From a virus, in the IMG/VR virus record IMGVR_UViG_3300033273_000098, positions 1 to 42,590 of that record: a stretch of 42,590 nucleotides of DNA, one strand, 5' to 3'. The notes under the pieces were generated by a model. That model saw nothing but the letters and a program-made list of their open reading frames with translations. It searched no databases and was not told the DNA's origin. The position numbers were made by a program, and so were the translations under genes. Each line of letters opens with the position of its first letter. Position 1 is the first letter of the stretch. This document shows, piece after piece, positions 142-42,590 of this stretch.

Positions 142-338
142 CTGCGACAGGCGGCGGTCTGTTCAAAGGTGACAACGGTGAAGTGGGATCTTCACCTGAA
201 GACATCTTCCGTGTGAACTCACAGACGCTGAACGCAAACACAACAATCGACGCAGACGAGAATGCATCATGCGCGGGGCCACTAACGATTGGCTCGGGCG
301 TGACACTAACAGTCAGCGGTAACCTAACGGTGGTATAG
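3..338 (+). CDS. Tail-fibre protein, 3' part of the gene that starts at 42299 and crosses the contig junction (162 aa when joined)
   Basis: The frame of 42299..42590 continues through the duplicated 141 bp to TAG 336-338. The hinge motif FAVADTYTKAEADSRY is shared with the 2730 fibre. The C-terminus is ...PLTIGSGVTLTVSGNLTVV. Confidence 0.8.
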   Translation, partial: ASSGGSVILNEQCAVDDEVTIVVHNTFAVADTYTKAEADSRYIASGTATGGGLFKGDNGEVGSSPEDIFRVNSQTLNANTTIDADENASCAGPLTIGSGVTLTVSGNLTVV

Positions 339-884
339 ATGTCAGGAACACTTACAGTACAGAACCTACAAGGTCCGACCACTGGAGCTAATGCAAACAA
401 AGTGATTGTACCAAGTGGACATACGTTGGATGCGTCACAAGGTTTCACACCGCCAGCAGGGCATGTGGTAAATGTTACACGTTGGACAACTACTAGTTTT
501 AATGGAAGCGGGTCCAGTAATTCCTTTGCAGCACTTGCAACCCTATCTCTTACAGCAAAAGCTGGTAATATTATACAGGTGCAAGGTGTGTTTCCAACAA
601 GAGGCGCAGCAGGTAGCGGCTGGAATTTAACATTACTGCGTTTGAATTCGAGCGTAGATGGTGTTGTCTGGGGTTCAGGTTATGATGGTCAAAATGGCTC
701 CACTGAGATAATCACCCATATACCAATAAATGCTAGCTGGGTTTGGGGCGGCACTGGAGAGAATACTCAATCAATTTCCCTAGAATTCAGAGCCTATGCT
801 GGCATCCAAAGGTTTTATGGTTCTGGCAACCAGGACGCCACTACAACCACACCTGTTCTAACATTCTTGGAGATTGCGCAATGA
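339..884 (+). CDS. Small fibre / receptor-binding-like protein, paralogue 1 of 3
   Basis: 181 aa, with ATG abutting the upstream stop. The N-terminus is MSGTLTVQNLQGP and the C-terminus ...LTFLEIAQ. Composition is Ser/Thr/Gly/Asn-rich. Its termini resemble those of the next two ORFs. Confidence 0.6.
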   Translation: MSGTLTVQNLQGPTTGANANKVIVPSGHTLDASQGFTPPAGHVVNVTRWTTTSFNGSGSSNSFAALATLSLTAKAGNIIQVQGVFPTRGAAGSGWNLTLLRLNSSVDGVVWGSGYDGQNGSTEIITHIPINASWVWGGTGENTQSISLEFRAYAGIQRFYGSGNQDATTTTPVLTFLEIAQ

Positions 885-1441
885 GTACACTCTACGTTGA
901 TAATCTCCAGCCTAACTTGGGTAATGCTGTCAGTGTTCCAGGGCATATTGTACAGGTCGTGCAAATGCATACATCCACAACGTGGACGGTCAGTGCAACA
1001 GAGGCGAAGCTGTTTGATAAAGCTATTACAACAAAACTAGACAATTCAGACATCCTTGTGATGTTGCAGATTGCCCGTAGTTCCTACAATCAGGATGTCG
1101 ATATGGCTGTTGCTGTGGGGTATAAGTCAGGTAACCCATCATCAAGCACAGCCGATTACACTTCATTACATACATCAAACTACTCTCGTCAGTTGGTGTC
1201 GAACCTGGGTTCCTATTGGACACAGGACACGTCTGATCCAGGTGGGGGCAGTTGGAGCGGTGCTTACGGTATATATTCAATCCCGTTTAACCGACTACAC
1301 AATCCAGCAGTGAGTGCTGGCACAGTGTTAAACTATTCAGTCTGGGCCTCATCAGATGGAACTATGCGCCTTGGCAATAGTTACAATACAGGTACCAACG
1401 GTTACGATACCACGCTAACCTTGATGGAGATCGCACAATGA
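881..1441 (+). CDS. Small fibre / receptor-binding-like protein, paralogue 2 of 3
   Basis: An internal ATG at 881 overlaps the upstream TGA (ATGA). The N-terminus is MSTLYVDNLQPNLGNAV and the C-terminus ...LTLMEIAQ. The 743 start would overlap the previous gene by 140 nt. Confidence 0.6.
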   Translation: MSTLYVDNLQPNLGNAVSVPGHIVQVVQMHTSTTWTVSATEAKLFDKAITTKLDNSDILVMLQIARSSYNQDVDMAVAVGYKSGNPSSSTADYTSLHTSNYSRQLVSNLGSYWTQDTSDPGGGSWSGAYGIYSIPFNRLHNPAVSAGTVLNYSVWASSDGTMRLGNSYNTGTNGYDTTLTLMEIAQ

Positions 1442-2016
1442 CCAGTATAATCAAAGTCGATCAAATCCAGTTAGCAGATGGTTCTGTGCCTACTATTGGT
1501 GATCTTGCTATCAACGACAGCGGAACAGTTTTGCAGGTACAGAGTGATGTCTTAAACACTTCATCTGGTTTATCTGCTTCTTCATGGGTTGATACTGGCC
1601 TGTCTGTGACACTTACGCCAAAATCAACAAACAGTAAGTTCATCCTTTGCCCTTCGGTAACTGGAAGTGTTGGTTATTTTACTTGGGGTATAAGGTTGGT
1701 CCGTGACGGGTCGCCTATAACGGAAAGTATTCATAACACAACTAACGCTAGCTCTAGAATAGCAACCACAATGTCACATAACGACTATAACGCTGGCTCT
1801 GGTGACACTACTAACAGCAACCAATACCAGATGCACACACTAGCAGGTTCTTTCCACGACACCACGTCAGCGTCTAACACCACAACGGCAATCACATTCA
1901 AAGTGCAATGGAACTCTTACACTGCTGGGGCAATAAACCGAAGCGTCGAGGACGACAACTCTTCTTCACGTCACAGATGCGCGTCTAGTCTGGTCGTGTA
2001 CGAAGTCGAAAAGTAA
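1438..2016 (+). CDS. Small fibre / receptor-binding-like protein, paralogue 3 of 3
   Basis: 192 aa with an ATGA overlap onto the upstream gene. The N-terminus MTSIIKVDQIQLADGSVP parallels the two preceding ORFs. Ser/Thr/Asn-rich. Confidence 0.55.
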   Translation: MTSIIKVDQIQLADGSVPTIGDLAINDSGTVLQVQSDVLNTSSGLSASSWVDTGLSVTLTPKSTNSKFILCPSVTGSVGYFTWGIRLVRDGSPITESIHNTTNASSRIATTMSHNDYNAGSGDTTNSNQYQMHTLAGSFHDTTSASNTTTAITFKVQWNSYTAGAINRSVEDDNSSSRHRCASSLVVYEVEK

Positions 2017-2029
2017 CGGAGTTTATACA

Positions 2030-2404
2030 ATGACAACAATCGCAAACGCATTAAGCGAACTGGGCGTCACAGAGTGGGTACTCCGTGGTGAACCAACGAC
2101 AGAAGCGGAGTTCAACCAGATGTTCCGCAAGATCACTGGCGCGGACGCCAATGGATCAGCAATCGAAACCACAGACCACGATGTCACCTGGGCATCTGTG
2201 TCAGCCAAGAAGGACGAGCTGGTAGCAGCTGAACCCATGCGTCTCCTACGTGAAGAACGTGACCGCCGCTTGGTTGAAACTGACTGGTGGGCCGTGTCTG
2301 ACCGTACGATGACTTCGGATCAGACAGCGTATCGCCAAGCACTTCGAGACATCACAACCACAGCAACGTCCCTGGATGACGTCGTGTGGCCTACGAAACC
2401 TTAA
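2030..2404 (+). CDS. Tail-fibre assembly chaperone-like protein
   Basis: 124 aa with GGAG 9 nt upstream. The C-terminal pattern RLLREERDRRLVETDWWAVSD...AYRQALRDI...VVWPTKP matches the hallmark of phage tail assembly chaperones. It sits among fibre genes. Confidence 0.6.
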   Translation: MTTIANALSELGVTEWVLRGEPTTEAEFNQMFRKITGADANGSAIETTDHDVTWASVSAKKDELVAAEPMRLLREERDRRLVETDWWAVSDRTMTSDQTAYRQALRDITTTATSLDDVVWPTKP

Positions 2405-2417: not shown

Positions 2418-2693
2418 ATGCCAGATATTACAGTCACACTTACAGATACCCAAATGAAGGGCCTCGAGTACGCAGCAGCATCACCCCAGGACTGGGCAGA
2501 GAATGCAATCACAGAACGCGCTCGTATCGCTAATGACGAGATCGTCCAGCTGTATACAAACCGCGCACTCGATGAGGGTGTCCAGATCCCTGCAACACGT
2601 GAGCTTATTGTTGCTGACGCCTTCACACGCGGTTGGGTCAAAACAGCAGCCCAGCGCAACGAAGATGCTGCCGCAGAGATGGCATCTGTATAA
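2418..2693 (+). CDS. Hypothetical protein
   Basis: 91 aa from the ATG preceded by aagaggg. It fills the gap between the chaperone-like gene and the next fibre gene. Confidence 0.5.
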   Translation: MPDITVTLTDTQMKGLEYAAASPQDWAENAITERARIANDEIVQLYTNRALDEGVQIPATRELIVADAFTRGWVKTAAQRNEDAAAEMASV

Positions 2694-2729: not shown

Positions 2730-3683
2730 ATGGCCTACATTGGTTCAGCCCCTACCTCAGTTGTGTCTCGAGACTCCGCAAAGGTTTACCGATACACGGC
2801 GACAGCAGGTCAAACTGTTTTCTCTGGTGCAGATGCAGACAACCAGATCCTTGATGTCACCCCTAGTGACACCAGGGTGCATATCAATGGTTTGCTACTA
2901 GAGCCATCAGACTACAACTTGACGAACTCGAGTGTCACTTTGACAACCGCAGCGTCAGGTGGTGATGAACTGACTGTCACTGGGTTCCAAACCTTTGAGG
3001 TCGCAGACACATACACCAAGGCGACTTCGGATTCACGCTATGTGAACACCACTGGTGATACGATTAGCGGCACCCTGGTTGTAGACGGAAGTTTCTCTGT
3101 ATCTCGAGGCTCAAGCCATTCTAATACCTACGAAGGTGGTCGTGTGACACTGAAGAATGGCAGCGGCTACACGAAGCAGTATGGCCTTGACACCTATTAT
3201 GAGAACTTCCGCATCTTTAGGGAAAACGCAGATGGTACAGGTGGTGCGGTAAGGTTTGAGATTGACAGCGCAGGGCGTGTGACTATGCCGTATCAACCAT
3301 CGTTTCAAGCATACAGAGCAACGACGGGATACGCCGTCTACAATGCAGGTGATGTAGTCATATGGCCTGATACGAATTACAACGTAGGAAATTGCTACAA
3401 TACGACAACAGGTAGATTTACGGCACCCATAGCGGGCCTCTACATGTTTTATGCTTACATTTACCAAGCATCGAGCAGCTACTCACGGTGGACCTTGCGA
3501 ATTAACGGTGGTCAAGCCTTTGCGGGGCAAGGTGGTATCCATCAGTCAGGCGATCAATGTACTGTGGCGGCTGCGCATAAACTCGCGGCTGGCGATTATG
3601 TTACAATGTCCTCTAGCTATGCAGGGCAGACACTATTTCACGACAGAGATCACTCCGCAATGGGCGGCTACCTAATAGGATAA
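2730..3683 (+). CDS. Tail fibre with shared N-terminal anchor domain and C1q-like C-terminal head
   Basis: 317 aa. The N-terminus MAYIGSAP...FEVADTYTKATSDSRY is paralogous to the 42299 gene. The C-terminus carries QPSFQAY, YNTTTGRFTAPIAGLYMF, AAGDYV and GGYLIG, which match gC1q hallmarks. Confidence 0.75.
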   Translation: MAYIGSAPTSVVSRDSAKVYRYTATAGQTVFSGADADNQILDVTPSDTRVHINGLLLEPSDYNLTNSSVTLTTAASGGDELTVTGFQTFEVADTYTKATSDSRYVNTTGDTISGTLVVDGSFSVSRGSSHSNTYEGGRVTLKNGSGYTKQYGLDTYYENFRIFRENADGTGGAVRFEIDSAGRVTMPYQPSFQAYRATTGYAVYNAGDVVIWPDTNYNVGNCYNTTTGRFTAPIAGLYMFYAYIYQASSSYSRWTLRINGGQAFAGQGGIHQSGDQCTVAAAHKLAAGDYVTMSSSYAGQTLFHDRDHSAMGGYLIG

Positions 3684-3695: not shown

Positions 3696-4388
3696 ATGAG
3701 TAACGCACGTAACTTATCCAAAGGTTTGATCGAGGGTCGCTTCGAGGTCAATCATTCAGAGAACTCAGCATCAGCATTCCCAAGTGGTGACTGGGCAGCT
3801 AAAGTTTACAACCAGTTCGACGCACCTAACGAGGGTGGTCTTGTTGTTGCCAATCGTTGGGAGGCAAGTGCATCTAGTGCATTTCTTGTGGGTGGTCTGC
3901 ATGATGGTGGCGATGGTTTTAACGAGTATCTAAAGGTTGACGGCATTGGTCACGTAACGATGCCTAAACAACCAGCGTTTTGGGCATATAATGTAACAGG
4001 ATCAAGTACACAGACTTCGGGTACAATCACATTCCCTCAAACGGATATAAATACTGGTAATCACTACAATACCTCTACAGGTAGATTTACAGCACCTATA
4101 TCTGGCGTTTATGAGTTTAATGTTATGGTTTTGCACAGGATGGTGAATGTCGGCGGTGCCGCTGAAATTACCCTTCTCCTTAACGGAGCAAATGTTAGTA
4201 GTCGTGGTCTAGCTTACTCTGGGGGAAGCTCTGGTCAGGGCGATTTGCATATTCCACAACATATAACGTACCGAAGATCATTGAGTGCAGGTGACTACGT
4301 TCAGCCTTACATACACGCAATGGGAGGTGGTCAGGACTTCTATTTACATAGTCGTCTATCTTACTTCACAGGACGCTTAATCGGATAG
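3696..4388 (+). CDS. C1q-like head-domain fibre protein
   Basis: 230 aa with GHVTMPKQPAFWAY, HYNTSTGRFTAPISGVYEF, SAGDYV and a terminal FTGRLIG. It is paralogous to 2730 and 41657. Confidence 0.7.
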   Translation: MSNARNLSKGLIEGRFEVNHSENSASAFPSGDWAAKVYNQFDAPNEGGLVVANRWEASASSAFLVGGLHDGGDGFNEYLKVDGIGHVTMPKQPAFWAYNVTGSSTQTSGTITFPQTDINTGNHYNTSTGRFTAPISGVYEFNVMVLHRMVNVGGAAEITLLLNGANVSSRGLAYSGGSSGQGDLHIPQHITYRRSLSAGDYVQPYIHAMGGGQDFYLHSRLSYFTGRLIG

Positions 4389-4400: not shown

Positions 4401-4664
4401 ATGAGTGATGAAACGGGCTGGCACCTGTCTAAATCAGTGCCACTACAGTTAATCTTTGGCTTGTTGATCCAGGCGGGTGCAATAGTCTGGACCGTAAGCA
4501 TGATGATGTCAGACATCGAGCGCAACATGCAAGACATCATGGTACTCGAGATCACCGTCAGTGAGCTAGAGGCTGTCGTGCAGTCTCAACAAGTTTCCCT
4601 GGCACGGATCGATGAGAACATCAAAGCAATACGTGATGCCGTCGAGCGGATGGCCTCCGAGTGA
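4401..4664 (+). CDS. Membrane protein with one N-terminal TMD and a coiled-coil tail (lysis-associated or virion-associated, unknown)
   Basis: 87 aa. The hydrophobic stretch LQLIFGLLIQAGAIVWTVSMMM is followed by heptad-like charged sequence. Confidence 0.5.
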   Translation: MSDETGWHLSKSVPLQLIFGLLIQAGAIVWTVSMMMSDIERNMQDIMVLEITVSELEAVVQSQQVSLARIDENIKAIRDAVERMASE

Positions 4665-8129: not shown

Positions 8130-8178
8130 AGGCCCCTTTCGCACCTAAAAACGACACTAATAATATCAATGGGTTAAC

Positions 8179-8191: not shown

Positions 8192-8216
8192 CAGAAACCC
8201 AAGGGAGACTACAAGA

Positions 8217-20736: not shown

Positions 20737-21222
20737 ATGGCCTTAGAGACTGGCATTTACATCGATAGTCTGAATGCAGCGAACCCTGCGTCGACTGATG
20801 GCCTTGGTCAGGCTGACGACCACCTACGACTACTCAAAAGCACCATCAAGGCAACACTGCCGAACCTGACTGGCGCGGTCACAGCTGACCAAAGCGAACT
20901 GAACGTCCTCGATGGTATCACAGCTGACACAACTGAGCTGAACCTTTTGGATGGTGCCACAGTATCGACAACCGAACTGAACTATGTGACTGGCGTCACC
21001 TCAGGTATCCAGGCCCAGATCGACACAAAGGCCCCCAGCGCATCCCCCACGCTGACTGGAACCACCACAGTGTCCACAGTCGCCTTAGGTGCCTTCACGA
21101 TCTCCCAGGGATCCGATGGTCGCCTGGACTTCAAGGTTGGTACCACGACTGTCATGTCGATTGACCAGTCAGGTAACCTGCGTGTCCGTGCTGACATCAG
21201 TGCATTCGACACCTCAGCATAA
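20737..21222 (+). CDS. Tail-fibre-like structural protein with ELNxLDG repeats
   Basis: 161 aa. The N-terminus reads GIYIDSLNAANPASTDGLGQADDHLRLLKSTIKATLPNLTGAV. This is followed by SELNVLDGIT, TELNLLDGAT and TELNYVTGVT, a pattern seen at the N-termini of many phage fibre proteins. Confidence 0.6.
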   Translation: MALETGIYIDSLNAANPASTDGLGQADDHLRLLKSTIKATLPNLTGAVTADQSELNVLDGITADTTELNLLDGATVSTTELNYVTGVTSGIQAQIDTKAPSASPTLTGTTTVSTVALGAFTISQGSDGRLDFKVGTTTVMSIDQSGNLRVRADISAFDTSA

Positions 21223-21239
21223 CTTAGGGGGACACAAGT

Positions 21240-21974: not shown

Positions 21975-22537
21975 TGATTAATACATCAGCAGAAAACCTC
22001 AGTAGATACCAAGGCTATTCACAAGCCTTCGACAGTCTTCCACAGCACGCTAAGGAAGCCACAGACGCTCTTGTCTGGTCCTGGCGTAATGGGAAGCTGT
22101 CGTTGGGCTGGGTAACCCGAGATCTCGACATCTTCATTGAAGTGTGTGGCGGTCAGGTCCCCGATATCATTGCGGATCAAACGCTATACTGTGTCGACCT
22201 AGAGAGCTTGTCGTCATCCACGATCCGTATGTACTCTGACTTCCCGTCAGATCCACGTGTGAACGTCAAGGGGTACTACTTTACATCCCTGGAGCCATCA
22301 GCCAAGCCCACGCAATCCAAGTCATACAAGAAGACATCCACAGAGGGTGTCATGCTGGTAGACAGGTACGGCGCGGACAAGCAGTTGATCTCAGCTGACG
22401 AAAAGGAACTCATGGGTGATGACCCCAGCATTTGGGGTGGACCTAAGCAGCTCATGGACATCGTCATGTCTGGCCCAGACAACTGGTGGCTTTTCCGTAA
22501 GCAATCCAAGAACCAATCGTACATCAGGGTCTACTGA
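21974..22537 (+). CDS. Hypothetical protein
   Basis: 187 aa. Its start shares one base with the upstream TAA. I recognise no motif. Confidence 0.55.
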   Translation: MINTSAENLSRYQGYSQAFDSLPQHAKEATDALVWSWRNGKLSLGWVTRDLDIFIEVCGGQVPDIIADQTLYCVDLESLSSSTIRMYSDFPSDPRVNVKGYYFTSLEPSAKPTQSKSYKKTSTEGVMLVDRYGADKQLISADEKELMGDDPSIWGGPKQLMDIVMSGPDNWWLFRKQSKNQSYIRVY

Positions 22538-22562
22538 TCACGTAGTGAGAGACATAACACCT

Positions 22563-24170
22563 ATGCCCAACTTACCTATTCGTAATCTAGGAGCCGCAGG
22601 TGTAGTTACCGATATCGACCCGTTCAACCTACCGTTCAACACGTTTACCCGAGCAAAGAACGTACGTTTCACCGAGGGTAACGTCGAGAAGGCCCCGATC
22701 TTTCGTACAGCCGAGACGTTCACATTTGAACCTGTGTTTGCCATGGGTATCTCACAGCCTGGTGCATACGATACGATCCTGGTTGCTGACAGTGACTTCA
22801 ATGTCCACGAATATGCAAACGCTACTGTTACACAGGTTTACACAAACCCGACCCCAGCGTCGTCTGTGGATCCTGTCACTGGTACGACCCTGGCAAACGT
22901 CGAGTACTTGAACCGACCAGATCATGTACCCGTGTATCGTGGGCCGACACAGACGAGCTTTAGCGTCCTACCGAACTGGCCTTCCAACAATCGTTGTGCG
23001 GCTATACGTTCATACGGCGACTTCTTGATTGCCTTGAACACGACAGAAAACGGTCAGGCCTTCCCAAACCGCGTCCGCTTCTCAGATCCTGTTCTAGCTA
23101 ACTCAGTCCCTGACACCTGGGACGAGACAGACACAACGAACAGCGCAGGTTTCAACGACCTGGTGCAGATGCAAACGCCTATCGTTGATGGAGCGACCCT
23201 GGGCACCAACTTTATGATCTATTCGTCTGACCAGGTATGGCAGATGGATTTCGTTGGTGGTTCATTTATCTTTAACTTCCGTAAGGTCTTCGATGACGCT
23301 GGTATCATCAACAAGAACTGTGTGGTCGAGGTTGAGGGACGTCATTACGTTTTCGACAATGATGACATCTACGTCAACGACGGCGTGACACGTAAATCTA
23401 TCTGTGACCAGCGGATCCGTAACTACGTTTTCAACGGTCTCGATAAGTCGAAAGCCAACCGCTGTTTTGTACAGCACAACACGTTACACGAAGAGATCTA
23501 CTTTTGTTATCACACAGGTGATGACATGGCGATTTACATGGACTCAGACGCATGCAACCGTGCAGCTGTTTACAACTATCGTGATGACAACTGGTCTTTC
23601 ATCGATCTTCCTAACTGTATCTCTGGTACATCAGGGAACCTGGACACGGTCCTAACCTACGCCACAACCAATGCGTCATATGCTTTGATTGGTGGTACAT
23701 ACCTTGCCCAGGAAAGCCGATACACTCAGTACCCTCTGATGATTTCACGTCAGAACACGGCTGATGGTATCAACTCAAATCGTATGCTTGCGATTGACAA
23801 CATGGACAAAGGTACGCTGTCCCTGGAGTACGCTGATGACATCAGTACAGAGGTTGTGCTCGAGCGCAAAGGTATTGACCTGGACGAGGCACAGATCCCG
23901 CTGTCAGGATACAAGGTGATCAAGGCGATCTATCCCCAGGTTTCCAGCCCAGGACAGGCCGCGACGATTAACTTTGTCTTTGGTGCGCATGACGTTCCGA
24001 ACTCAGTGCCTAACTATGGTTCGCCCGTGCTGTTTGACATTCAGACAGGATACAAGGTCGACACCAGGGCATCTGGTCGATACCTCAGTTTCCAGGTGAC
24101 ATCTAACGAGGTCAACGACTTCACGCTGTCAGGCATGGATATTGACCTGGTCGTGACAGGGAGACGATAG
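22563..24170 (+). CDS. Putative tail tubular / nozzle protein (gp12-like role)
   Basis: 535 aa from the ATG giving MPNLPIRNLGAAGVVTDIDPFNLP... It lies directly upstream of the ejection-protein genes. The call rests on size, position and composition. The upstream part of ORF 22416 overlaps the previous gene. Confidence 0.45.
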   Translation: MPNLPIRNLGAAGVVTDIDPFNLPFNTFTRAKNVRFTEGNVEKAPIFRTAETFTFEPVFAMGISQPGAYDTILVADSDFNVHEYANATVTQVYTNPTPASSVDPVTGTTLANVEYLNRPDHVPVYRGPTQTSFSVLPNWPSNNRCAAIRSYGDFLIALNTTENGQAFPNRVRFSDPVLANSVPDTWDETDTTNSAGFNDLVQMQTPIVDGATLGTNFMIYSSDQVWQMDFVGGSFIFNFRKVFDDAGIINKNCVVEVEGRHYVFDNDDIYVNDGVTRKSICDQRIRNYVFNGLDKSKANRCFVQHNTLHEEIYFCYHTGDDMAIYMDSDACNRAAVYNYRDDNWSFIDLPNCISGTSGNLDTVLTYATTNASYALIGGTYLAQESRYTQYPLMISRQNTADGINSNRMLAIDNMDKGTLSLEYADDISTEVVLERKGIDLDEAQIPLSGYKVIKAIYPQVSSPGQAATINFVFGAHDVPNSVPNYGSPVLFDIQTGYKVDTRASGRYLSFQVTSNEVNDFTLSGMDIDLVVTGRR

Positions 24171-24449: not shown

Positions 24450-24476
24450 AAACAACAAGAATGATTGGAGAAGCCC

Positions 24477-26356: not shown

Positions 26357-26366
26357 GATATGACAT

Positions 26367-34510: not shown

Positions 34511-34512
34511 AC

Positions 34513-36543
34513 ATGCATAAAAAACATTATGAAAAGCTGGAAGATGACAAGATTGTCAACATTCTGGACGATAACATCCGCAGATCTATCGGGTACTATG
34601 ACTCACAGATCAGCCGTGAACGCCAGCGTGTAATCGACCACTACAATGCGAAGCTGCCACGCCCAGCGCACGACGGTAACTCGAAGTATGTGTCCATGGA
34701 CGTATATGATGCCGTCGAGAGTATGAAAGCAGCTCTACTGGAGACATTCAGTACAGGATACAAGACTGTCCGCTTTGCGCCTCAGACAGCCGATGATGTC
34801 GTCCTGGCAGATGTAGCAACTTCATACTGTGACTATGTAGCAAATCGTCAAAACAACCTCTTCGAGGTGATGCAGTCTGTCATCCACGATGGCCTGATCG
34901 CTCGAGCTGGTATTGCAAAGGTGTTCTATTACTATGGGTCGGAGAGCTACCTCGAGGAAATACAAGATCTTACGGAAGAGGAATTCGACGCGCTACTTGC
35001 CCAGGATAACGTCGAGATTGACGAAGTTGAGCAAGATGAGCTTGGCTTATACTCGGGCACACTGCGCGTATCTGAGGATGCGTCGAAGGTCTGTATCGAA
35101 AGCATCGGGCCTGAAGAATTCGTAGTTGAGCCACAGTGTCGTGACCTGGAATCAGCGTCATTCTGTGCCCACCGTACGACCAAGACGATCTCAGAGCTGC
35201 GTGAGGCAGGTTACGACGAGAAACTGATCGCCAAGATCGGGGACCATGAACACGTCGACATGGAGACGGATCCAGAGGTCCTGGCACGTCACGAGAACAT
35301 CGGCTCAGATCGTGGATTCAACGCTAAAGGCTACCAAGACCAGGTGCGTGAAGTCACAGTCTATGAGTGCTACATCATGCTCGATCCCGATGCCACTGGC
35401 GTCGCTGAGTTGTACCGTATCGTCAAGGCTGGCAACGTGATGCTAGAGATGGAACAGGTGACACGTCGCCCGTTCGTTGCATTCGTTCCTCTGCCGATCC
35501 CTCATGCGTTCTATGGCAACAACTTTGCATCCAAGGTTGTCCCGATTCAGAATGCGCGCACAGTTTTGACACGCTCGATCCTGGATCACGCGATGATCAC
35601 AAACAACCCACGTTACCAGGTCGTCAAAGGCGGTCTAACAAACCCACGCGAGTTGATCGACAACCGTGTCGGCGGGATCGTCAATGTGTCACGCCCTGAT
35701 GCAATCACCCCGATGCCACAGGCACCGTTGAACCCATTTATCTTCCAGACAATCCAGATGCTGGACGAAGACAAAGAAGACACCACAGGCGTCTCTCGTT
35801 TGTCCCAGGGACTCAACAAGGATGCCATCAGCAAGCAGAACTCAGCAGCTATGGTCGAGCAGCTGGCGACAATGTCCCAGCAGCGTCAGAAGATCATTGC
35901 ACGTAACTTCGCTAACAACTTCCTGAAACCTCTGTATCAGATGATCTACCAGCTGGTGATCGAGAACGAGCCAGAGACAAAGATTGTGGAGCTGGCAGGG
36001 AACTATGTTGCTGTGTCTCCAGCTGACTGGAAGTCTAAGCGTGATGTCGTCGTCGAGATGCATCTAGGTTACGGCGAACAGGAACAGGAAGCACAGAAGT
36101 ACCTGGCACTGCATACGTTGATGTCACAGGATCCAACCCTGTCATCGATGTACACTCCTGAGAACCAATTCAAACTTATGGCGCACGTGATGGAAAACAA
36201 CGGGATCAAGAACGTGTCAGACTATCTGACGCCGCCGAACCAGTTGCCACCGCCACAGCCAGATCCAGCACAGGAAATGGCGATGCAGATGCAGCAGAAA
36301 CAGATGGAGCTGCAAGAGCGTCAAACACAGATTGCGGAGATGAAGGCGCAGATGGACGCACAAATCGCGCAAATGAAGATGCAGCTGGATACCATGAAGG
36401 CGCAACAGAACTTCGCAATACAATCGGACAACGTCGATCTGAAGGAAGCTCAACTCGAGCACAAGCAGTTTGTCGACAAGGCCGAGCTAGAGATCGCGAG
36501 AAACGCAGACGACGTCCGCGCAATCGCATCACCGACTGGGTAG
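34513..36543 (+). CDS. Portal protein
   Basis: 676 aa, directly after terL. It has a C-terminal Gln/Met-rich coiled coil (QEMAMQMQQKQMELQERQTQIAEMKAQMDAQ). The call rests on size and position. Confidence 0.75.
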   Translation: MHKKHYEKLEDDKIVNILDDNIRRSIGYYDSQISRERQRVIDHYNAKLPRPAHDGNSKYVSMDVYDAVESMKAALLETFSTGYKTVRFAPQTADDVVLADVATSYCDYVANRQNNLFEVMQSVIHDGLIARAGIAKVFYYYGSESYLEEIQDLTEEEFDALLAQDNVEIDEVEQDELGLYSGTLRVSEDASKVCIESIGPEEFVVEPQCRDLESASFCAHRTTKTISELREAGYDEKLIAKIGDHEHVDMETDPEVLARHENIGSDRGFNAKGYQDQVREVTVYECYIMLDPDATGVAELYRIVKAGNVMLEMEQVTRRPFVAFVPLPIPHAFYGNNFASKVVPIQNARTVLTRSILDHAMITNNPRYQVVKGGLTNPRELIDNRVGGIVNVSRPDAITPMPQAPLNPFIFQTIQMLDEDKEDTTGVSRLSQGLNKDAISKQNSAAMVEQLATMSQQRQKIIARNFANNFLKPLYQMIYQLVIENEPETKIVELAGNYVAVSPADWKSKRDVVVEMHLGYGEQEQEAQKYLALHTLMSQDPTLSSMYTPENQFKLMAHVMENNGIKNVSDYLTPPNQLPPPQPDPAQEMAMQMQQKQMELQERQTQIAEMKAQMDAQIAQMKMQLDTMKAQQNFAIQSDNVDLKEAQLEHKQFVDKAELEIARNADDVRAIASPTG

Positions 36544-36582
36544 ACCTACGGGTCTCCCAGCCCCCAACCCCAATGAGAGCAG

Positions 36583-36858
36583 ATGAAAACCGAAGAAGAG
36601 CTAATTGAGCTTGGAACGGCATCAGATGAGCTGTTGTCGTCCCATGCATTTGGTCAGGTGACAAACCACTTAGTGGAGCAAGCGTTCCAGGCGTTTGTCA
36701 ACTCGGCCCCAGATGCGCACGAGAAGCGCGAACAGATCTATCGCCATTATCGATCCCTGGTCGACGTGGTGAACAGCCTGAAGGAAAACAAGGCCGTCAA
36801 AGACGAGATCTTAATGAAACTCAACAACCGAGAAGAGGAAGCACAGGACCATGAGTAA
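36583..36858 (+). CDS. Hypothetical head-module protein
   Basis: 91 aa, lying between the portal and scaffold genes. Confidence 0.5.
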   Translation: MKTEEELIELGTASDELLSSHAFGQVTNHLVEQAFQAFVNSAPDAHEKREQIYRHYRSLVDVVNSLKENKAVKDEILMKLNNREEEAQDHE

Positions 36859-37876
36859 CGTCCAAAATGATGCAACCGAACCACGCGCGTTTGACGATCT
36901 GTCAGATGCCGCAGATGCCATCCTAGACCGCTGGTCAGACGGTGAAGACCTATCTGAAGAAGAGGAACTAGAGGCGACAGATGACGTCCAAGAGGAGGAG
37001 ACTGACGAGGACGTCACTGAACTTGATGAAGACACTGAGGACGAAGAGCCAGAAGAAGATCAAGACGAAGACCCTGAGGAAGCTGAAGAAGCCAGCGACG
37101 ACGATGAGCCTGAAGAAATCGAAATTGACGATGACTTCCTGGTTGCCATCTCAGTCGACGGTGAAGAGCGTCAGGCATCTTTGAAGGATCTGAAACGTCT
37201 CTACGGACAAGAAGCGTCTTTGACACGTAAGTCTCAAGAAGTTGCTGCCAAACGTAAAGAGGCTGAAGAGTCTTTCGTTAGAGCAAATGCAAGTTATCAG
37301 AAACTTATTGAACGAGCAGAAGCACGGTTCAAGCCGTATTCCGAGATCGACATGCTAGTCGCATCGAGGGAGATGTCGGCAGAGGACTTTGCGTCGTTGC
37401 GCCGTGAGGCCAAAGAAGCTGAAGAGGACGTCAAGTTTCTCAAAGAGGAAGCTCAGAACTTCTACAGCGAGGCCCAAAAGCAATACCAGGCACAGCAGCA
37501 AGAAGCAGCCAAAGAGTGTGTAAAAGTACTTGAGGAGCAGCTGCCAGACTGGGGCAACGAGCTTTACAATGACATCCGTCAATATGCGGTTTCTGTCGGA
37601 CTTCCCCAGGAACAAGTTGACCAATACGTCGACCCAACAGTGATCATGCTGATTAACAAAGCACGTCTGTATGACCAAAGCCAAAAGACCATCGAGTCCA
37701 AGAAGGCTAAGGCCAAGAAGACGAGCCGAGGAAAGGTACTGAGATCTAAGAAGTCGCCAGTCAAACCTAAGGCTACGTCCGAGATGAAGCAGCAGCGGAT
37801 GCGTGAACGCGCCCGTTCGACACAGGATCCCGATGACATTGCAAGCGCACTAATGGCGCGATGGGAGCAATCCTAG
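36851..37876 (+). CDS. Scaffolding protein
   Basis: 341 aa. It has an extremely acidic N-terminal third (EEEELEATDDVQEEETDEDVTELDEDTEDEEPEE...) and a helical charged remainder. It lies immediately upstream of the capsid gene. Confidence 0.7.
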   Translation: MSNVQNDATEPRAFDDLSDAADAILDRWSDGEDLSEEEELEATDDVQEEETDEDVTELDEDTEDEEPEEDQDEDPEEAEEASDDDEPEEIEIDDDFLVAISVDGEERQASLKDLKRLYGQEASLTRKSQEVAAKRKEAEESFVRANASYQKLIERAEARFKPYSEIDMLVASREMSAEDFASLRREAKEAEEDVKFLKEEAQNFYSEAQKQYQAQQQEAAKECVKVLEEQLPDWGNELYNDIRQYAVSVGLPQEQVDQYVDPTVIMLINKARLYDQSQKTIESKKAKAKKTSRGKVLRSKKSPVKPKATSEMKQQRMRERARSTQDPDDIASALMARWEQS

Positions 37877-37907
37877 TTCACAACACTCAAATAGAAGGTA
37901 ACCAATC

Positions 37908-38789
37908 ATGGCTACATTTACTACTTACGACCAGGTCGGTAAGAAAGAAGACGTCTCAGATATCATCTCAGACATCACACCCCTAGACAGCCCAATGTTC
38001 AGCCTAATGAAAACCGAGAAAGTAAATGCTCGTGTATTCGAATGGCAAGAAGATGCGCTACGTGCAGCAAATGCTGACAACGCCATCGTGGAAGGGGCCG
38101 ACGCAACGATGTCAACATTGACAGCGACAACAATGCGTTCGAACACAACACAGATCCTAGAAGAGTCTTTCCAGGTTTCTGCAACTTCAGACGCAATCGC
38201 CACATATGGTCGTGCGAAGGAAACTGCATACCAGTTGGGCCGCGCACTAAAAGCCATCAAGCGTGACATCGAAGCAGCGTTCGTTGGTCGTGACCAAGCA
38301 GCTGTCACAGGTTCAGGCTCAGTTGCTCGTAAGATGGCGTCAGTCATCAACCAGATCACAACTGACGAGAACAACGCAACACCAGCAGCTCTTTCAGAAG
38401 CTATGGTATTGTCAGCTGGTGAAACAGCGTACGACAACGGTTCTGACGTCAACACATTGATGATCAAACCAGGTGACGCACAGATTGTTGCTGGCTTCGC
38501 AGGTTCTGCGGGTCGTAACCGTGAGATCGCACAGGGCAAAACATTGGTTAACGCCATTGATTTGTACGTGAGTCCGTATGGTGAGTACCGCGTGGTATTG
38601 AACCGCCACTTGGCGTCTGACACAGCTCTGCTGATCGACCCAGCGATGTTCAAGACATGTGTACTACGTCCATTCGCACGTACACTTCTTGCGAAGAACG
38701 GTGACTCAGATCGCCACAGCATCGTCGGTGAATACTCATGTAAGCACATGAACTTCGGTGACTCTGTGAAGATCACAGGTCTTACCTAA
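37908..38789 (+). CDS. Major capsid protein (HK97-fold; not T7 gp10-like at the N-terminus)
   Basis: 293 aa, preceded by the scaffold gene and followed by strong hairpins. The N-terminal QVGKKEDVSDIISDITPLDSPMFSLM...FEWQEDAL resembles the DUF5309/SU10-type capsid family. Confidence 0.8.
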   Translation: MATFTTYDQVGKKEDVSDIISDITPLDSPMFSLMKTEKVNARVFEWQEDALRAANADNAIVEGADATMSTLTATTMRSNTTQILEESFQVSATSDAIATYGRAKETAYQLGRALKAIKRDIEAAFVGRDQAAVTGSGSVARKMASVINQITTDENNATPAALSEAMVLSAGETAYDNGSDVNTLMIKPGDAQIVAGFAGSAGRNREIAQGKTLVNAIDLYVSPYGEYRVVLNRHLASDTALLIDPAMFKTCVLRPFARTLLAKNGDSDRHSIVGEYSCKHMNFGDSVKITGLT

Positions 38790-38796
38790 GACATAG

Positions 38797-38816
38797 CTCA
38801 GGCCTTCGGGCCTGGG
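38797..38816 (+). terminator. Hairpin 1 after the capsid gene
   Basis: ctcaggcc-ttcg-ggcctggg forms an 8-bp stem (one G-U) with a TTCG tetraloop. Confidence 0.55.
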
Positions 38817-38838
38817 TCATCTGATGAGGGTCATCCTC

Positions 38839-38900
38839 GTCGTCCCTGGGGTTTTCGCTCTCCTTACCCTGGGACGACTTGGGTGGCCCTCTTTTTATTT
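38839..38900 (+). terminator. Hairpin 2 plus T-rich tract after the capsid gene
   Basis: gtcgtccc pairs with gggacgac (8 bp), with a further ggg/ccc. The tract ctttttattt follows at 38891-38900. Confidence 0.55.
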
Positions 38901-38914
38901 CCAAGGAGATAGCA

Positions 38915-39232
38915 ATGAGTAAGCTAATTGATAAGAACGCCGTCGACCTGACAGGAACCTTCGAGGACTTCCACCAGGACGGTAAGAACGTCATTCGCCA
39001 AACATCACAGAATATATCCCAGGCGTTCCTGGACGACCTGAAGAATGCGCGGAACGAGTCCACGCAGAAACCGACAGGTGACTTCATGCGTGTTGCATCG
39101 ATCCCCGTCGTTATTGTCGAGAAGTGGATGCGCGAAGGTTTCAACGTATGGGAAGCCTCGGGCCAGGAGATCGTCAAGAAACTGAAGAATGAAAACCTGG
39201 ATGCCTTCATGGCAACTGAGAAGAGGATCTAA
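38915..39232 (+). CDS. Hypothetical protein
   Basis: 105 aa from the ATG with AAGGAG upstream. The ORF-track start at 38879 lies inside the terminator. Confidence 0.55.
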   Translation: MSKLIDKNAVDLTGTFEDFHQDGKNVIRQTSQNISQAFLDDLKNARNESTQKPTGDFMRVASIPVVIVEKWMREGFNVWEASGQEIVKKLKNENLDAFMATEKRI

Positions 39233-39235
39233 CCC

Positions 39236-39325
39236 ATGTACAAGAGCGGTAAGTTTAAACCCTGCAAGGCCTGTAAGACACCAATGACATGCAGCAAGTT
39301 TGGCTGTCAGAAGGCAGAGGATTGA
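39236..39325 (+). CDS. Possible 29-aa four-Cys peptide
   Basis: The product is MYKSGKFKPCKACKTPMTCSKFGCQKAED, with CxxC...C....C. It fills the gap exactly. Confidence 0.3.
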   Translation: MYKSGKFKPCKACKTPMTCSKFGCQKAED

Positions 39326-39327
39326 AT

Positions 39328-39492
39328 ATGGGTAGAGGTCTGTATGCAAATATTCACGCTAACCAAAAGGCTGGCAAAAAGCCTCGCAAGAAAGGCCAGA
39401 AGGGTGCACCTACTGATGCTGATTTTGCACGCGCTGCTAGAACAGCAAAGCCGAAGCCAAAAGCAAAGCCACGAAGAACACAAAGGGCATAA
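39328..39492 (+). CDS. Small highly basic protein (GLYANIHA motif, DUF5872-like)
   Basis: 54 aa with GAGG upstream. MGRGLYANIHANQKAGKKPRKKGQKGAPTDADF resembles a small basic protein family widespread in phages. Confidence 0.5.
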   Translation: MGRGLYANIHANQKAGKKPRKKGQKGAPTDADFARAARTAKPKPKAKPRRTQRA

Positions 39493-39495
39493 GAA

Positions 39496-40101
39496 ATGAA
39501 CAAAGGTCAGCTAAGGGCGCACCTGATTGCGCTAATGAACCGCAGCGATCTATCCAACGCACTGGCTGACACGTTCATCGATCAGTCGTTTGCTCGTATC
39601 AACCGTACCCTGCGGATCCCACCGATGGAGAAGCAGGTGTCTTACAATATCAACGCTGCAACCTCGTTTGTCGGTCTACCTAATGACTTCCTCGAGGTGA
39701 TCGATGTCTACTCTGAAGGCCGTGTCCTGGACCGCGTGACAATGCGTGAGATGGTACCTTTGAGACACCAGGGCGACGCTGGTCCAGCACAACGGTTCAC
39801 ACGTGAGGGTTCTAAGATCCTACTGCATCCTGAGCCATCCACAGGTGAAGTACTCTTGAACTACTACGCTGAGATCCCGCAGCTGACGTCAGATAGTGAC
39901 GAGAACTTTATGACCGTCATTGCTAGTGACCTGGTTTGCTATGGTGCCCTTTGTTATGCGGCTGATTACTTCATCGACGAACGCGCTCAGTTCTTCGAAC
40001 AGAAGTTCGCACTCTACATGGCAGAGCTTCAGAGCCAGAGTGATGATGCCGAAACAGCTGGGACCGTCATTGCGATGACACCAGTCGCAACCTACGAATA
40101 A
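39496..40101 (+). CDS. Putative head-to-tail adaptor / tail tubular A-like protein
   Basis: 201 aa. It lies between the capsid block and the fibre genes. The N-terminus is LRAHLIALMNRSDLSNALADTFIDQSFARINRTLR. The call is based mainly on position. Confidence 0.4.
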   Translation: MNKGQLRAHLIALMNRSDLSNALADTFIDQSFARINRTLRIPPMEKQVSYNINAATSFVGLPNDFLEVIDVYSEGRVLDRVTMREMVPLRHQGDAGPAQRFTREGSKILLHPEPSTGEVLLNYYAEIPQLTSDSDENFMTVIASDLVCYGALCYAADYFIDERAQFFEQKFALYMAELQSQSDDAETAGTVIAMTPVATYE

Positions 40102-40113: not shown

Positions 40114-41310
40114 ATGAGTGCCAAGTCTAGTTTCTATGCAATTGCTGGACGCGAAGTTACTGAAGTCGACCCAATCACGTCACTTCGAAACGAAGCGGAG
40201 GCAGCACGTGCAGCCGCAGTCCAGGCAAAGAATGAGGCCTTGGCATCACAGCAAGCTGCCCAGGATAGTGAAAACAATGCGGCAACCAGTGAGGCCAATG
40301 CCGCCGCTAGTGCATCAGCTGCAAACACGTCAGCTGTCGCAGCGTCCAACGCAGCCGCCAACATCAGTACATCCACAGCAGCAGCCGCAGCCGCCCAGGC
40401 AGCAGCCGAGACTGCACGTGATGATGCCCAGGCTGCACGTCTAGGTGCTGAGACCGCAGAGACCGCCGCTGAAACAGCTCAGACAGCCGCTGAGGCCGCT
40501 CAGACAGCAGCGGAAACAGCTGAGACGAATGCTGAGACGGCAGAGACCAATGCAGCGTCCTCAGCCACCGCAGCGTCCGCTAGTGAGACAGCAGCAGCTG
40601 CAAGCGAGACTGCCGCAGCAGGTAGTGCCACAGCAGCAGCTGGATCTGCCACAGCAGCCGCCACCTCTGAAGCAAATGCAGCAGCGTCACAGACAGCAGC
40701 AGCTGCAAGTCAAACAGCAGCCGCTACGTCAGAAACCAACGCTGCAACTTCAGCTACTAATGCTGCTACCTCAGAGACCAACGCAGCAACGTCAGCAACT
40801 AACGCTGCTACCTCTGAGACCAATGCAGCCACGTCAGCTGCAAACGCAGCAGCAGCAGAAACCAATGCGACCACAAGCGCGACTAATGCTGCGACGTCAG
40901 CAACCAATGCCGCCGCAAGTGAAACAGCAGCAGCTGGGTCAGCGACAGCAGCCGCGACCAGTGAAACAAACGCTACGACAGCAGCAACTAACGCCGCTAC
41001 GTCAGAGACCAACGCAGCAACTTCAGAGACGAATGCCGCCTCGAGTGCAACAGCTGCGGCAGGGTCAGCAACGACAGCAGCGACTGAGGCAACCAATGCT
41101 GCAACATCTGCAACAGACGCAGCGACGTCAGCAGGTACAGCAGCCACCGATGCAGCAGCAGCAGCCGCGTCAGCAGCGGCAGCGGCAACATCAGAAACTA
41201 ATGCAGCAACATCAGAAGCAAACGCTGCGGCATCAGCAGCCGCTGTGGCATCAGCAGCTCAGACAGCAGCGACAGATGTCTCCGTCGCGATGGCTATCGC
41301 TCTTGGATAA
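40114..41310 (+). CDS. Fibrous tail-fibre shaft protein made of Ser-Glu/Ala-Thr-Asn-Ala-Ala-Thr heptads
   Basis: 398 aa. From about residue 40 to 385 it consists of Ala/Thr/Ser/Glu/Asn 7-residue (21-bp) repeats such as NAATSET NAATSAT. The SETNA motif is familiar from lambda Stf / P2 H-type fibres. Confidence 0.7.
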   Translation: MSAKSSFYAIAGREVTEVDPITSLRNEAEAARAAAVQAKNEALASQQAAQDSENNAATSEANAAASASAANTSAVAASNAAANISTSTAAAAAAQAAAETARDDAQAARLGAETAETAAETAQTAAEAAQTAAETAETNAETAETNAASSATAASASETAAAASETAAAGSATAAAGSATAAATSEANAAASQTAAAASQTAAATSETNAATSATNAATSETNAATSATNAATSETNAATSAANAAAAETNATTSATNAATSATNAAASETAAAGSATAAATSETNATTAATNAATSETNAATSETNAASSATAAAGSATTAATEATNAATSATDAATSAGTAATDAAAAAASAAAAATSETNAATSEANAAASAAAVASAAQTAATDVSVAMAIALG

Positions 41311-41324
41311 TAGGACAAACGAAT

Positions 41325-41657
41325 ATGGCTAATACATTCACACGATATACATCTCGCAGCGTAGGTACGTCAGCAGTGCCCGTAGGTAACTTGACCGTAG
41401 GATCATCCACACAGACAACTGTCATTGGTCTCAGCTGCTCGAACATCACCACTGATGCAATCACTGTGGACGTACAGCACAGCGATGGGACAAGCGATAC
41501 GCACCTGGTAAAGGGTGCGACAGTTCCAGTTGGTGGATCCCTGGTTGTCGTTGGTGGTGATCAAAAGGTTGTCCTGGTCTCAGGTGACAGCATCAAAGTC
41601 ACCTCAAGTGCACCGACATCATGCGATGTCTTTATGTCAGTATTGGAGATCACATAA
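41325..41657 (+). CDS. Small beta-rich virion protein, unknown role
   Basis: 110 aa, Ser/Thr/Val/Gly-rich. It is embedded in the fibre module. Confidence 0.5.
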   Translation: MANTFTRYTSRSVGTSAVPVGNLTVGSSTQTTVIGLSCSNITTDAITVDVQHSDGTSDTHLVKGATVPVGGSLVVVGGDQKVVLVSGDSIKVTSSAPTSCDVFMSVLEIT

Positions 41658-42292
41658 TGGGTAAGTCACATGATCTAGCCACGTTCCTGGACGATGGTGC
41701 CCCAGGTGATCTGATTGTCGACTCAGGTCATCAGCTCCGCGTCACAAGATCTGATGGACTGACCTTTGGTACAATCTCTAAGGGTAACGCTAATTCCGCT
41801 CTTGGTAGTGGTATCATATACAACGACGTTAATGCCGATGGTCACCACTTCAAGCTCGGTGGCGTGACAAAGATGAACATAGACACGGCGGGTCGTGTGA
41901 CTATGCCTGACCAGCCTTGGGCGTTAGTAGATCTCGGCGGTGGTGCCAACTATGTTAGTCACACTGGTGTGATGGCATTTAATAATGTGGTGCAATCTAA
42001 TGGGTCACACTACAACACCTCAACTCACCGTTTCGTTTGTCCTGTCGATGGGGTGTACTCAATTGCGTTCTCTGTTCTTTCGGCTAATGCCACAGATCAG
42101 TTTCACGTTAATGTACTCTTAAACGGAACAAGATTTGCGCGAAGCTACGTTACCTACCGCGCTAACAAGGGTTACGTTGAATACAGATGCGCAGCTAATG
42201 ATTATCTTCAGATATTCGCGGATAACATAAGTGTATACCCAGGGACTGGCATAGATATGTACACGTGGGCTTGCTACAGATTATTAGGATAA
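41657..42292 (+). CDS. C1q-like head-domain fibre protein
   Basis: 211 aa from the ATG overlapping the upstream TAA. It has GRVTMPDQPWAL, HYNTSTHRFVCPVDGVYSIAF, ANDYLQIF and a terminal CYRLLG. Confidence 0.7.
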   Translation: MGKSHDLATFLDDGAPGDLIVDSGHQLRVTRSDGLTFGTISKGNANSALGSGIIYNDVNADGHHFKLGGVTKMNIDTAGRVTMPDQPWALVDLGGGANYVSHTGVMAFNNVVQSNGSHYNTSTHRFVCPVDGVYSIAFSVLSANATDQFHVNVLLNGTRFARSYVTYRANKGYVEYRCAANDYLQIFADNISVYPGTGIDMYTWACYRLLG

Positions 42293-42298
42293 ACACAC

Positions 42299-42590
42299 AT
42301 GGCATACATAGGACATTCCCTTTCTGAAGGGGTACGCCGCGTATATACATATGTGGCTACAGTTAACCAGGACACGTTTAGCGCGGTTTATGGCGTAGGC
42401 GCAGTAGACGTCTACCAGAACGGAGTCCTTCTACCACCCACAGCATACAATGCATCTAGTGGTGGCAGTGTGATCCTCAACGAGCAGTGTGCAGTGGATG
42501 ACGAGGTCACCATTGTCGTACACAACACGTTCGCAGTTGCAGACACATACACCAAAGCAGAGGCAGATAGCCGCTACATTGCGTCAGGCA
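42299..42590 (+). CDS. Tail-fibre protein, 5' part (continues at base 142 of the window; see 3..338)
   Basis: MAYIGHSLSEGVRRVYTYVATVNQDTFSAV... is paralogous to the N-terminus of the 2730 fibre. The frame is open to the end of the window. Confidence 0.8.
   Translation, partial: MAYIGHSLSEGVRRVYTYVATVNQDTFSAVYGVGAVDVYQNGVLLPPTAYNASSGGSVILNEQCAVDDEVTIVVHNTFAVADTYTKAEADSRYIASG
42450..42590. repeat. Terminal overlap copy 2 (identical to 1-141)
   Basis: See the feature at 1-141. Confidence 0.95.

Follow-up and report, generated by a model that had tools for sequence, protein, structure and literature searches.

The viral genome recorded in IMG/VR as IMGVR_UViG_3300033273_000098 (42,590 nucleotides; this whole stretch is referred to below as the window) carries a run of eleven genes, g1–g11, which begins at position 40114 and continues across the join of the circular assembly to position 4388 (Table 1). 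These genes probably encode a modular, branched and multivalent receptor-binding complex of a short-tailed phage of the SU10/Bruynoghevirus type. Six separate globular heads are encoded: g3, g10 and g11 have C1q heads, and g5, g6 and g7 have heads of a TNF-like lectin fold. Two proteins, g4 and g10, share an N-terminal domain that appears, from a weak but specific sequence match, to be related to the XD trimer-docking module, and among related phages each family keeps conserved N-terminal parts and variable heads, with parts exchanged between unrelated backbones. It is reasonable to see in this assemblage a multivalent, probably branched complex. A preliminary description of the window, made from its sequence, had proposed a fibre and receptor-binding module at this place and held it to be exceptional for a podovirus. 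The multi-head module, a basis for branching in the XD-type domain and the swapping of cassettes all stand; the exceptional status does not.

Extent of the module

The eleven open reading frames (ORFs) lie on the + strand, as do all genes of the window, and occupy 6,724 unique bases, or 15.8% of the genome, in good agreement with the one sixth estimated earlier for a module spanning the junction. Neighbouring ORFs either overlap at start and stop by 1–4 nt or are separated by gaps of 6–36 nt. The module is flanked upstream by the head-to-tail adaptor gene and downstream by a holin-like gene; in L001, one of the related metagenomic contigs (which are given L numbers here), a CHAP endolysin comes after the holin position. 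Direct family, fold or homology evidence was obtained for nine of the eleven genes, and all eleven plausibly belong to one fibre/receptor-binding module. Scans for sigma-70 promoters and terminators inside the module gave results at chance level.

The two ends of the window match exactly over 141 bp (1–141 = 42450–42590), giving a unique genome length of 42,449 bases. Because this overlap falls within the coding sequence of g4, the join is an artefact of assembly. It resembles the mark left by an assembler (a circular path at k=141) rather than a terminal repeat or a physical genome end.

Two families of jelly-roll heads

Three C1q-like heads had been recognised in the preliminary description, and all three score above the PF00386 gathering threshold of 23.7 bits. 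For g10, 429 homologues were found; its family profile matches single domains of C1q proteins in the PDB with E values down to ~1e-17. An AlphaFold2 (AF2) model of g10 has a predicted local distance difference test (pLDDT) score of 82 overall, with most of the C-terminal domain above 90, and in Foldseek it matches the ten-strand jelly-roll gC1q heads of cerebellin, caprin-2, C1QL and C1q with template modelling (TM) scores (target) of 0.77–0.87. The other two C1q heads, g3 and g11, are linked to g10 by alignment only. Within g3, g10 and g11 there is no Gly-X-Y collagen-like stalk; the heads are instead preceded by the XD-type domain or by a short N-terminal peptide. The start of g3 is most likely at 41657, where a TAATG sequence overlaps the g2 stop, and not at the upstream ATG at 41621.

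The heads of g5, g6 and g7 belong to a second family. BLASTP found no mutual match among the three proteins, which had been described as tandem small paralogues. A profile built from 69 g7 homologues nevertheless recovers both g6 and g5 with a clean gap to noise, as well as every positional equivalent in relatives. The AF2 model of g7 (pLDDT 85.6, predicted TM score 0.80) is a TNF-like jelly roll. Its Foldseek matches include the C-terminal domain of Chlamydia Pgp3 (E 4e-6), the lectins BC2L-C-Nt and PLTL, and the C-terminal domain of lambda gpJ, its receptor-binding end; across the TNF-like lectin folds E values run from 4e-6 to 1e-3 and TM scores (target) from 0.55 to 0.66, at a sequence identity of just 9–17%. 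Matches in a viral library include the C-termini of longer tail fibres of marine phages, among them S-CAM7 tail fibre proteins, and g7 also matches phrog_6942, a tail fibre C-terminus, with an E value of 2e-9. The near-invariant columns of the g7 family cluster at residues 1–33, which are unstructured in the monomer model. Comparable N-terminal conservation is seen in g5, in which the first 82 residues are 59% identical to a 170-aa protein of L014/L016, and in g6, in which the first 27 residues are 78% identical to a 152-aa protein of L014–16 and the remainder has diverged.

The chaperone-like protein of the preliminary description, g8, scores at about twice the cut-off for the tail-fibre assembly chaperone family PF16778 (Table 1). 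Its gene comes after g7 both here and in contigs L006, L013 and L014–16.

The domain shared by g4 and g10

The anchor domain noted earlier as common to g4 and g10 was recovered by BLASTP (42% identity over 106 aa, E 5e-15). In the AF2 model of g10 it forms a six-strand beta domain at residues 17–86, with pLDDT above 90. The XD2 and XD3 domains with which it can be compared are small beta-jellyrolls of ~60–70 residues. A profile of the g4/g10 N-terminus matches the XD2 region of CBA120 TSP4-N (7rfo, 7rej; residues 196–277) with an E value of 2e-4; a second match, to the N-terminal part of a K1 capsule depolymerase (9k4a), has an E value of 3.5e-4. The structural link to XD2 is a whole-chain Foldseek match only, between g10 and the cyanophage A4 fibre gp24, whose head-binding domain has been reported to be XD2-like and to be sited at the adaptor/nozzle junction. 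XD domains act as trimer-to-trimer docking modules in T4 gp10, CBA120 TSP2/TSP4 and G7C gp66 (PMC8825819). These weak but specific similarities suggest that the shared domain is related to the XD module of T4 gp10 and CBA120 TSP4, a relationship which gives the branching idea a concrete basis. Outside the window, g4 is 73% identical to a 164-aa protein of L001.

A 32-nt direct repeat (81% identical) is found at 78–109 and 2991–3022, where it encodes the ‘F.VADTYTK’ neck common to g4 and g10. It is plausible that this repeat is a recombination site for the exchange of heads.

The small conserved proteins g2 and g9

The 110-aa protein listed in the preliminary description is a real gene product, g2, from a family whose members are nearly all of exactly that length. 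Homologues occur in cultured podoviruses and myoviruses, including HMO-2011 (gp42), Pelagibacter phage HTVC100P (gp41), Roseobacter phages CRP-9 as well as CRP-13, Rhizobium phage RHph_Y65 (gp310) and cyanophage S-TIM5 (gp130). In these cultured phages they are annotated as virion structural proteins and are encoded directly upstream of a fibre gene. Contig L013 (4418–5431) encodes an in-frame fusion of 337 aa, in which a g2-like domain (73% identical, residues 1–107) is joined to a C1q/BclA_C-like head; otherwise the family consists of stand-alone proteins, with at least 2,400 members of 110 aa. The fusion, together with the position of g2 homologues upstream of fibre genes, is the ground on which g2 and g3 are treated here as one unit. 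No solved relative of g2 was found with either the single sequence or the family profile, and profile–profile comparison linked it neither with the XD domain nor with the g7 family.

The one protein left without a function in the preliminary description, g9, has no Pfam or PHROG match. It is 73–94% identical in relatives, where its usual place is just upstream of the XD-domain gene. An exhaustive search for g9 homologues returned stand-alone small proteins only, with no informative fusions.

The g1 shaft

The heptad-repeat shaft reported at 40114 is strongly borne out by the periodicity of g1. Alanine makes up 44% of the protein, and the identity of residues seven positions apart is 0.59, against 0.27 +/- 0.02 in shuffled sequences, with the register unbroken over ~51 heptads; the DNA contains 21-nt repeats. 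Many PHROG tail-fibre families are matched (best E 7e-22). Proteins occupying the g1 position in relatives are 70–372 aa long and may have any N-terminus, and they share a hydrophobic C-terminus, ‘...A(L/M)AIALG’. This ending lies at 41281–41310 in the window, and it also closes the proteins encoded at 5205–6323 in L001 and at 6868–7428 in L003, with further examples in L006 (4656–4868), L009 (6951–7430) and L015 (6396–7250). Given a variable length and a constant end motif, the repeat of g1 behaves as a variable spacer between two conserved ends.

Exchange of parts among relatives

Relatives of the window were reached through homologues of g10 and g7; a pattern-based search of IMG/VR with the adaptor returned nothing, and neither did an exact look-up of the major capsid protein. 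On long metagenomic contigs an equivalent ordered cassette lies directly after an SU10-type adaptor gene, and at least five metagenomic phage lineages carry such a cassette with the heads swapped. Comparison across these contigs clearly reveals the cassette swapping that had been suspected. The backbone of L001, from sediment, matches that of the window (portal 82%, capsid 89%, RNA polymerase 79%). This contig retains g1–g4, g9 and g10; four other small genes stand in place of g5–g8, and two of the four belong to a different ‘tail fiber’ PHROG. Seawater contigs L014–16, whose portal is 81% identical, retain g4–g8, and their g3 slot is filled by a C1q head, by a fibre tip of the peptidase-S74 type or by a protein of 191 aa. 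The order of the g4-g5-g6-g7-g8 block is kept in L006, L013 and L014–16.

The identity of individual genes does not track that of the backbone. Thus g7 is 91% identical in L013, where the adaptor is 27% identical, and g9 is 94% identical in L009, where the portal is 27% identical. Horizontal exchange of parts has therefore made the module a mosaic.

The same disparity is seen in g2 and g9. Across the distant lineages L003, L006, L009 and L013, g2 is 73–77% identical, and the adaptor, where present, 26–30%; with g9 included, the two families (73–94%) are far better conserved in distant lineages than the portal and adaptor (26–30%). In L014–16, whose backbone is close, g2 is only 48% identical. 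Such a pattern implies either recent horizontal transfer or very strong constraint.

In the Limnohabitans phage DC33 (L020, PQ492659), the stretch 6378–9907 encodes an 848-aa protein with an XD+C1q unit at its end; after it come genes resembling g9 and g7, and a peptidase endolysin. The taxonomy line of this record reads Inoviridae; its gene content looks like that of a tailed phage which has been mis-filed.

Tail context

The adaptor encoded immediately upstream of g1 matches the SU10 adaptor (7z47_A, E 3e-10) and the Pa223 adaptor (9nwi_A, E 1e-7) in the PDB, and is likely to be the docking platform for the module. Among the genes scanned there is no sheath, tube or tape-measure gene, which, with the hub/nozzle matches in Table 1, indicates a podovirus with a tail of the SU10/Bruynoghevirus type. 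The further fibre-like gene proposed at 20737 is confirmed by its PHROG tail protein matches and by an N-terminus resembling that of Pa223 gp60; the N-terminus also matches the SU10 short fibre (7z47_I) weakly. Both the SU10 short fibre and Pa223 gp60 (the latter described in a preprint) dock on a loop of the hub/nozzle, and by analogy the 20737 fibre is probably docked there too. Since the hub site is probably taken by this fibre, the module must attach elsewhere, most plausibly to the adaptor in the manner of the SU10 long fibre. Long fibres of SU10 dock on the adaptor via a coiled coil.

Between the short fibre and the hub, at 21240–21974, lies the gene for a glycine-rich 244-aa protein, possibly another adhesin. 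Its N-terminus resembles that of a 341-aa protein of L006 which bears a T-even GP38 adhesin signature.

Table 1. Position and supporting evidence of the module genes and of associated tail and boundary genes (window coordinates)
Gene	Position	Strand	Product	Evidence
g1	40114..41310	+	398-aa alanine-rich heptad-repeat shaft with short N-terminal region	~51 heptads; PHROG
g2	41325..41657	+	Conserved 110-aa protein, putative partner of the next head gene	Family of 2,429 homologous clusters
g3	41657..42292	+	211-aa C1q-domain head	PF00386 33.6 bits; aligns with g10 and g11
g4	42299..42590 then 142..338 (1-141 repeated)	+	162-aa protein; putative XD-type N-terminal domain and short C-terminal stalk	Translation across join
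g5	339..884	+	181-aa paralogue 1; conserved N-terminal peptide, variable head	g7-family profile E 5.5e-4
g6	881..1441	+	186-aa paralogue 2	g7-family profile E 4e-7
g7	1438..2016	+	192-aa paralogue 3; TNF-like jelly-roll head	AF2 model, Foldseek, phrog_6942
g8	2030..2404	+	124-aa tail-fibre assembly chaperone	PF16778 53 bits (cut-off 26.6); phrog_4912 1e-15
g9	2418..2693	+	91-aa conserved stand-alone protein	251 representative clusters, nearly all 75-120 aa
g10	2730..3683	+	317-aa protein; putative XD-type N-terminal domain, conserved neck, C1q head	PF00386 42.4 bits
g11	3696..4388	+	230-aa C1q-domain head	PF00386 42.1 bits; phrog_15750 2e-18
Holin	4401..4664	+	Holin-like protein, downstream module boundary	phrog_1296 holin E 3.6e-4
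Short fibre	20737..21222	+	Separate short tail fibre	N-terminus like that of gp60, the tail fibre of Pa223 (9nxk_A), E 5e-9; PHROG tail proteins
Hub/nozzle	22416..24170	+	Tail hub/nozzle	9nwi_Y (Pa223 hub) E 2e-65; nozzle 8zkk_O 2e-34; SU10 nozzle 7z47_G 4e-28
Adaptor	39496..40101	+	Head-to-tail adaptor	PF24175 SU10_adaptor 94.3 bits (cut-off 27)

A proposed architecture

From the domain identities, the pattern of conservation and the exchange of parts described above, an oligomeric state, a set of contacts, a stoichiometry and a class of ligands can be predicted. All fibre proteins would be trimeric. Trimers of g1 would dock on the adaptor, in the way of the long fibre of SU10, and provide a spacer of ~50 nm, leaving the hub site to the separate short fibre encoded at 20737. 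The g2 and g3 proteins may together form one split fibre tip. The XD-type domains of g4 and g10 would serve as nodes for the attachment of other trimers, and the conserved N-terminal peptides of g5–g7, and perhaps of g3 and g11, would plug exchangeable heads onto these nodes to give a branched, multivalent complex. The g8 protein, and possibly g9, would assist folding and be absent from the virion. If the heads differ in the surface glycans or proteins that they bind, the complex could have a higher avidity or could allow several host surface variants to be used.

Several points weigh against this architecture. Virion incorporation, trimeric state, branching and stoichiometry are all inferred. 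Two XD nodes would have to serve five node-less heads, and the XD match itself is modest (E ~1e-4). Matches of g1 to PHROG families may be compositional in part. Its N-terminal 78 aa gave no PDB sequence match at E <= 10, SU10 long fibre gp12 included, and with no solved relative of this region the docking of g1 on the adaptor stays an analogy. Neither g2 nor g9 has a fold assignment, and g7 is 77–91% conserved, more than would be expected of a receptor-binding tip.

Alternative readings

The rapid turnover of cassettes between relatives could also mean that the module is a store, from which a subset of products (g1–g3 and g10, for example) enters any one virion and the other heads are spare or compete, so that virions are heterogeneous. 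Proteins g4 and g10, having a common docking domain, could compete in this way, and metaviromic-island behaviour has been reported for such genes (PMC3909814). A store of this kind is nevertheless unlikely: the ORFs are all intact, co-oriented and translationally coupled, the g4-g5-g6-g7-g8 order persists in L006, L013 and L014–16, and the module is undivided by any promoter, terminator or inversion signal.

The order of the genes, from shaft through small connectors to chaperone, raises a second alternative, a single unbranched fibre in which the products are arranged end to end in gene order and the last binds the receptor. The T4 long tail fibre, made of gp34-35-36-37 with the help of chaperones, provides a precedent, and g2 and g9 could serve as hinges or connectors. 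Six compact jelly-roll heads, however, would normally terminate a fibre rather than extend it; in addition two XD-type domains are present, XD being a side-attachment module, and the heads vary independently among relatives. A serial fibre is consequently rated as improbable, more so than a cassette store.

Least probable of all is that the module is in part not borne by the tail, with g1 forming neck whiskers or head fibres (as in T4 fibritin or the Pa223 capsid spike, which a preprint proposes to aid adsorption) and lectin-like heads holding the virion on cell surfaces or particles; the position of the module after the capsid and adaptor genes, the probable occupation of the hub dock by the 20737 fibre and a g1 length of 70–398 aa across relatives agree with this, but the SU10-type adaptor is a known dock for long fibres, homologues have been given the annotation tail fibre and in myoviruses have tail fibre genes as neighbours, and XD domains are tail and baseplate modules.

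A Mu/P1-type invertible fibre switch was considered and rejected, the genes being all co-oriented, with no convincing inverted repeats or signature of an invertible segment. No reverse transcriptase indicative of a diversity-generating retroelement was present among the genes scanned, the whole genome not having been scanned for one.

Other features of the genome

Upstream of the module are genes for the large terminase, portal, scaffold, major capsid protein and adaptor. Elsewhere the genome has genes for a tyrosine integrase, a T7-type RNA polymerase, a primase-helicase, a DNA polymerase and a ribonucleotide reductase, together with a block of tail and ejection genes at 20737–32243; no tRNA genes were found. 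The best matches among cultured phages are 30% identical for the portal and 32% for the RNA polymerase, and a nucleotide search of half of the genome against 50,697 phage records returned no matches. Cultured relatives thus exist at the protein level only.

The backbone is itself a mosaic (7302–10679 with 32933–40101), in which a tyrosine integrase and a single-subunit RNA polymerase of the T7 type occur together with a portal, capsid, adaptor and hub of the SU10/Bruynoghevirus type. An identical arrangement of the whole mosaic is found in L001. Within the tail and ejection block, a 1,958-aa ORF at 26367–32243 has a single weak PHROG match (residues 896–1057); its product is presumably a giant protein that is internal to the virion or acts in ejection. 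On the - strand, a 283-aa ORF at 37925–38776 lies opposite the major capsid gene; in a genome with its genes on one strand, an ORF of this kind is almost certainly due to chance.

Significance

A wider reading, put forward tentatively, is that the module belongs to a portable plug-and-socket adsorption kit shared by podoviruses and myoviruses of aquatic, mainly alphaproteobacterial hosts. Its sockets would be the single XD-type nodes with g2 and g9 and its plugs the short conserved N-terminal peptides; each of six fibres would display as many as six C1q/TNF-type lectin heads simultaneously, and recombination at conserved necks would swap the heads. Such a kit would correspond, in miniature and with lectins, to the large depolymerase branches of CBA120-like phages, and would give the g2 and g9 families a structural role not described before. 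It would also allow the host-range determinants of metagenomic phages to be predicted by rule, and supply a compact scaffold on which binding heads could be engineered.

Host recognition is little understood in the marine phages of SAR11, SAR116 and Roseobacter, which are hard to culture. For these, the window and its relatives supply a parts list of conserved sockets (XD-type domain, g2, g9 and chaperone) and exchangeable C1q/TNF-type heads, together with direct evidence that parts move between unrelated phage backbones. The literature searched offered no architectural account of these modules, and described no protein with a single XD node, no pair of jelly-roll head families with N-terminal peptides and no split unit of g2 and a head. 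The present value of the work lies in a good annotation and a testable model. The arrangement is found again in many aquatic phages and does not amount to a new kind of system.

Comparison with known systems

A close parallel in gene content is HMO-2011, a SAR116 podovirus of Puniceispirillum, with ~16 consecutive small genes (gp28-gp43) annotated as tail fibre, C1q or tail-related. Homologues are shared for g2 (gp42, 40%), g4 (gp33, 37%), g8 (gp38, 56%) and a C1q head (gp31). HMO-2011 differs in its 55-kb backbone, which is without a T7-type RNA polymerase and without a heptad shaft of the g1 type, and its small ‘tail fiber’ genes are mostly of another family than those of the window. Roseobacter CRP phages related to HMO-2011 are grouped here with its run of fibre genes.

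C1q proteins encoded beside the tail fibre have been proposed as the receptor-binding proteins of pelagiphages (Mizuno et al. 2014, PMC3909814). The C1q genes of HTVC010P-type phages have conserved N-termini and hypervariable heads and lie in metaviromic islands, and ‘putative carbohydrate binding domain’ proteins are the commonest class in the list of genes from hypervariable islands (PMC3909814); one of these has the g7 fold. These marine podoviruses resemble the window in having a C1q head adjoining a tail fibre gene, and g2 homologues occur in HTVC100P and also in HTVC035P and HTVC203P. One C1q gene per genome has been described for the HTVC010P type, whereas the window has three C1q heads, three TNF-like heads and XD-type domains.

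The preliminary description had taken one or two fibre genes as the norm for a podovirus. Set against the gene run of HMO-2011, the cassettes of several metagenomic lineages and the C1q genes of pelagiphages, that premise fails; it fits T7 and P22 better than marine podoviruses, among which a large fibre module is not unusual.

SU10 (Kuravirus) and Pa223 (Bruynoghevirus) have a homologous adaptor, hub/nozzle and hub-docked short fibre. The coiled-coil long fibre of SU10, which docks on the adaptor, is encoded right after the adaptor gene, as g1 is; the likeness of g1 to SU10 gp12 is one of position and coiled-coil character only. The long fibre of SU10 is made of two proteins, and Pa223 is without a long fibre; C1q/TNF heads and an eleven-gene module are absent from both.

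The proposed branching resembles that of CBA120 TSP1-4 and G7C gp66/gp63.1, in which XD-type docking domains are likewise found on the N-terminal side and receptor-binding protein genes are likewise in tandem. Those systems consist of large depolymerases of the beta-helix kind, borne on the tails of myoviruses or of N4-like phages, and each hub protein has two or three XD domains, whereas the module of the window is predicted to have a single XD domain per protein and has small C1q/TNF heads. The heads themselves have the same jelly-roll folds as the trimeric heads of metazoan gC1q, BC2L-C-Nt, PLTL and Chlamydia Pgp3. In metazoan C1q, and in BclA, the head is preceded by a collagen-like stalk; the heads of the window are without one, and stand in the context of a phage fibre.

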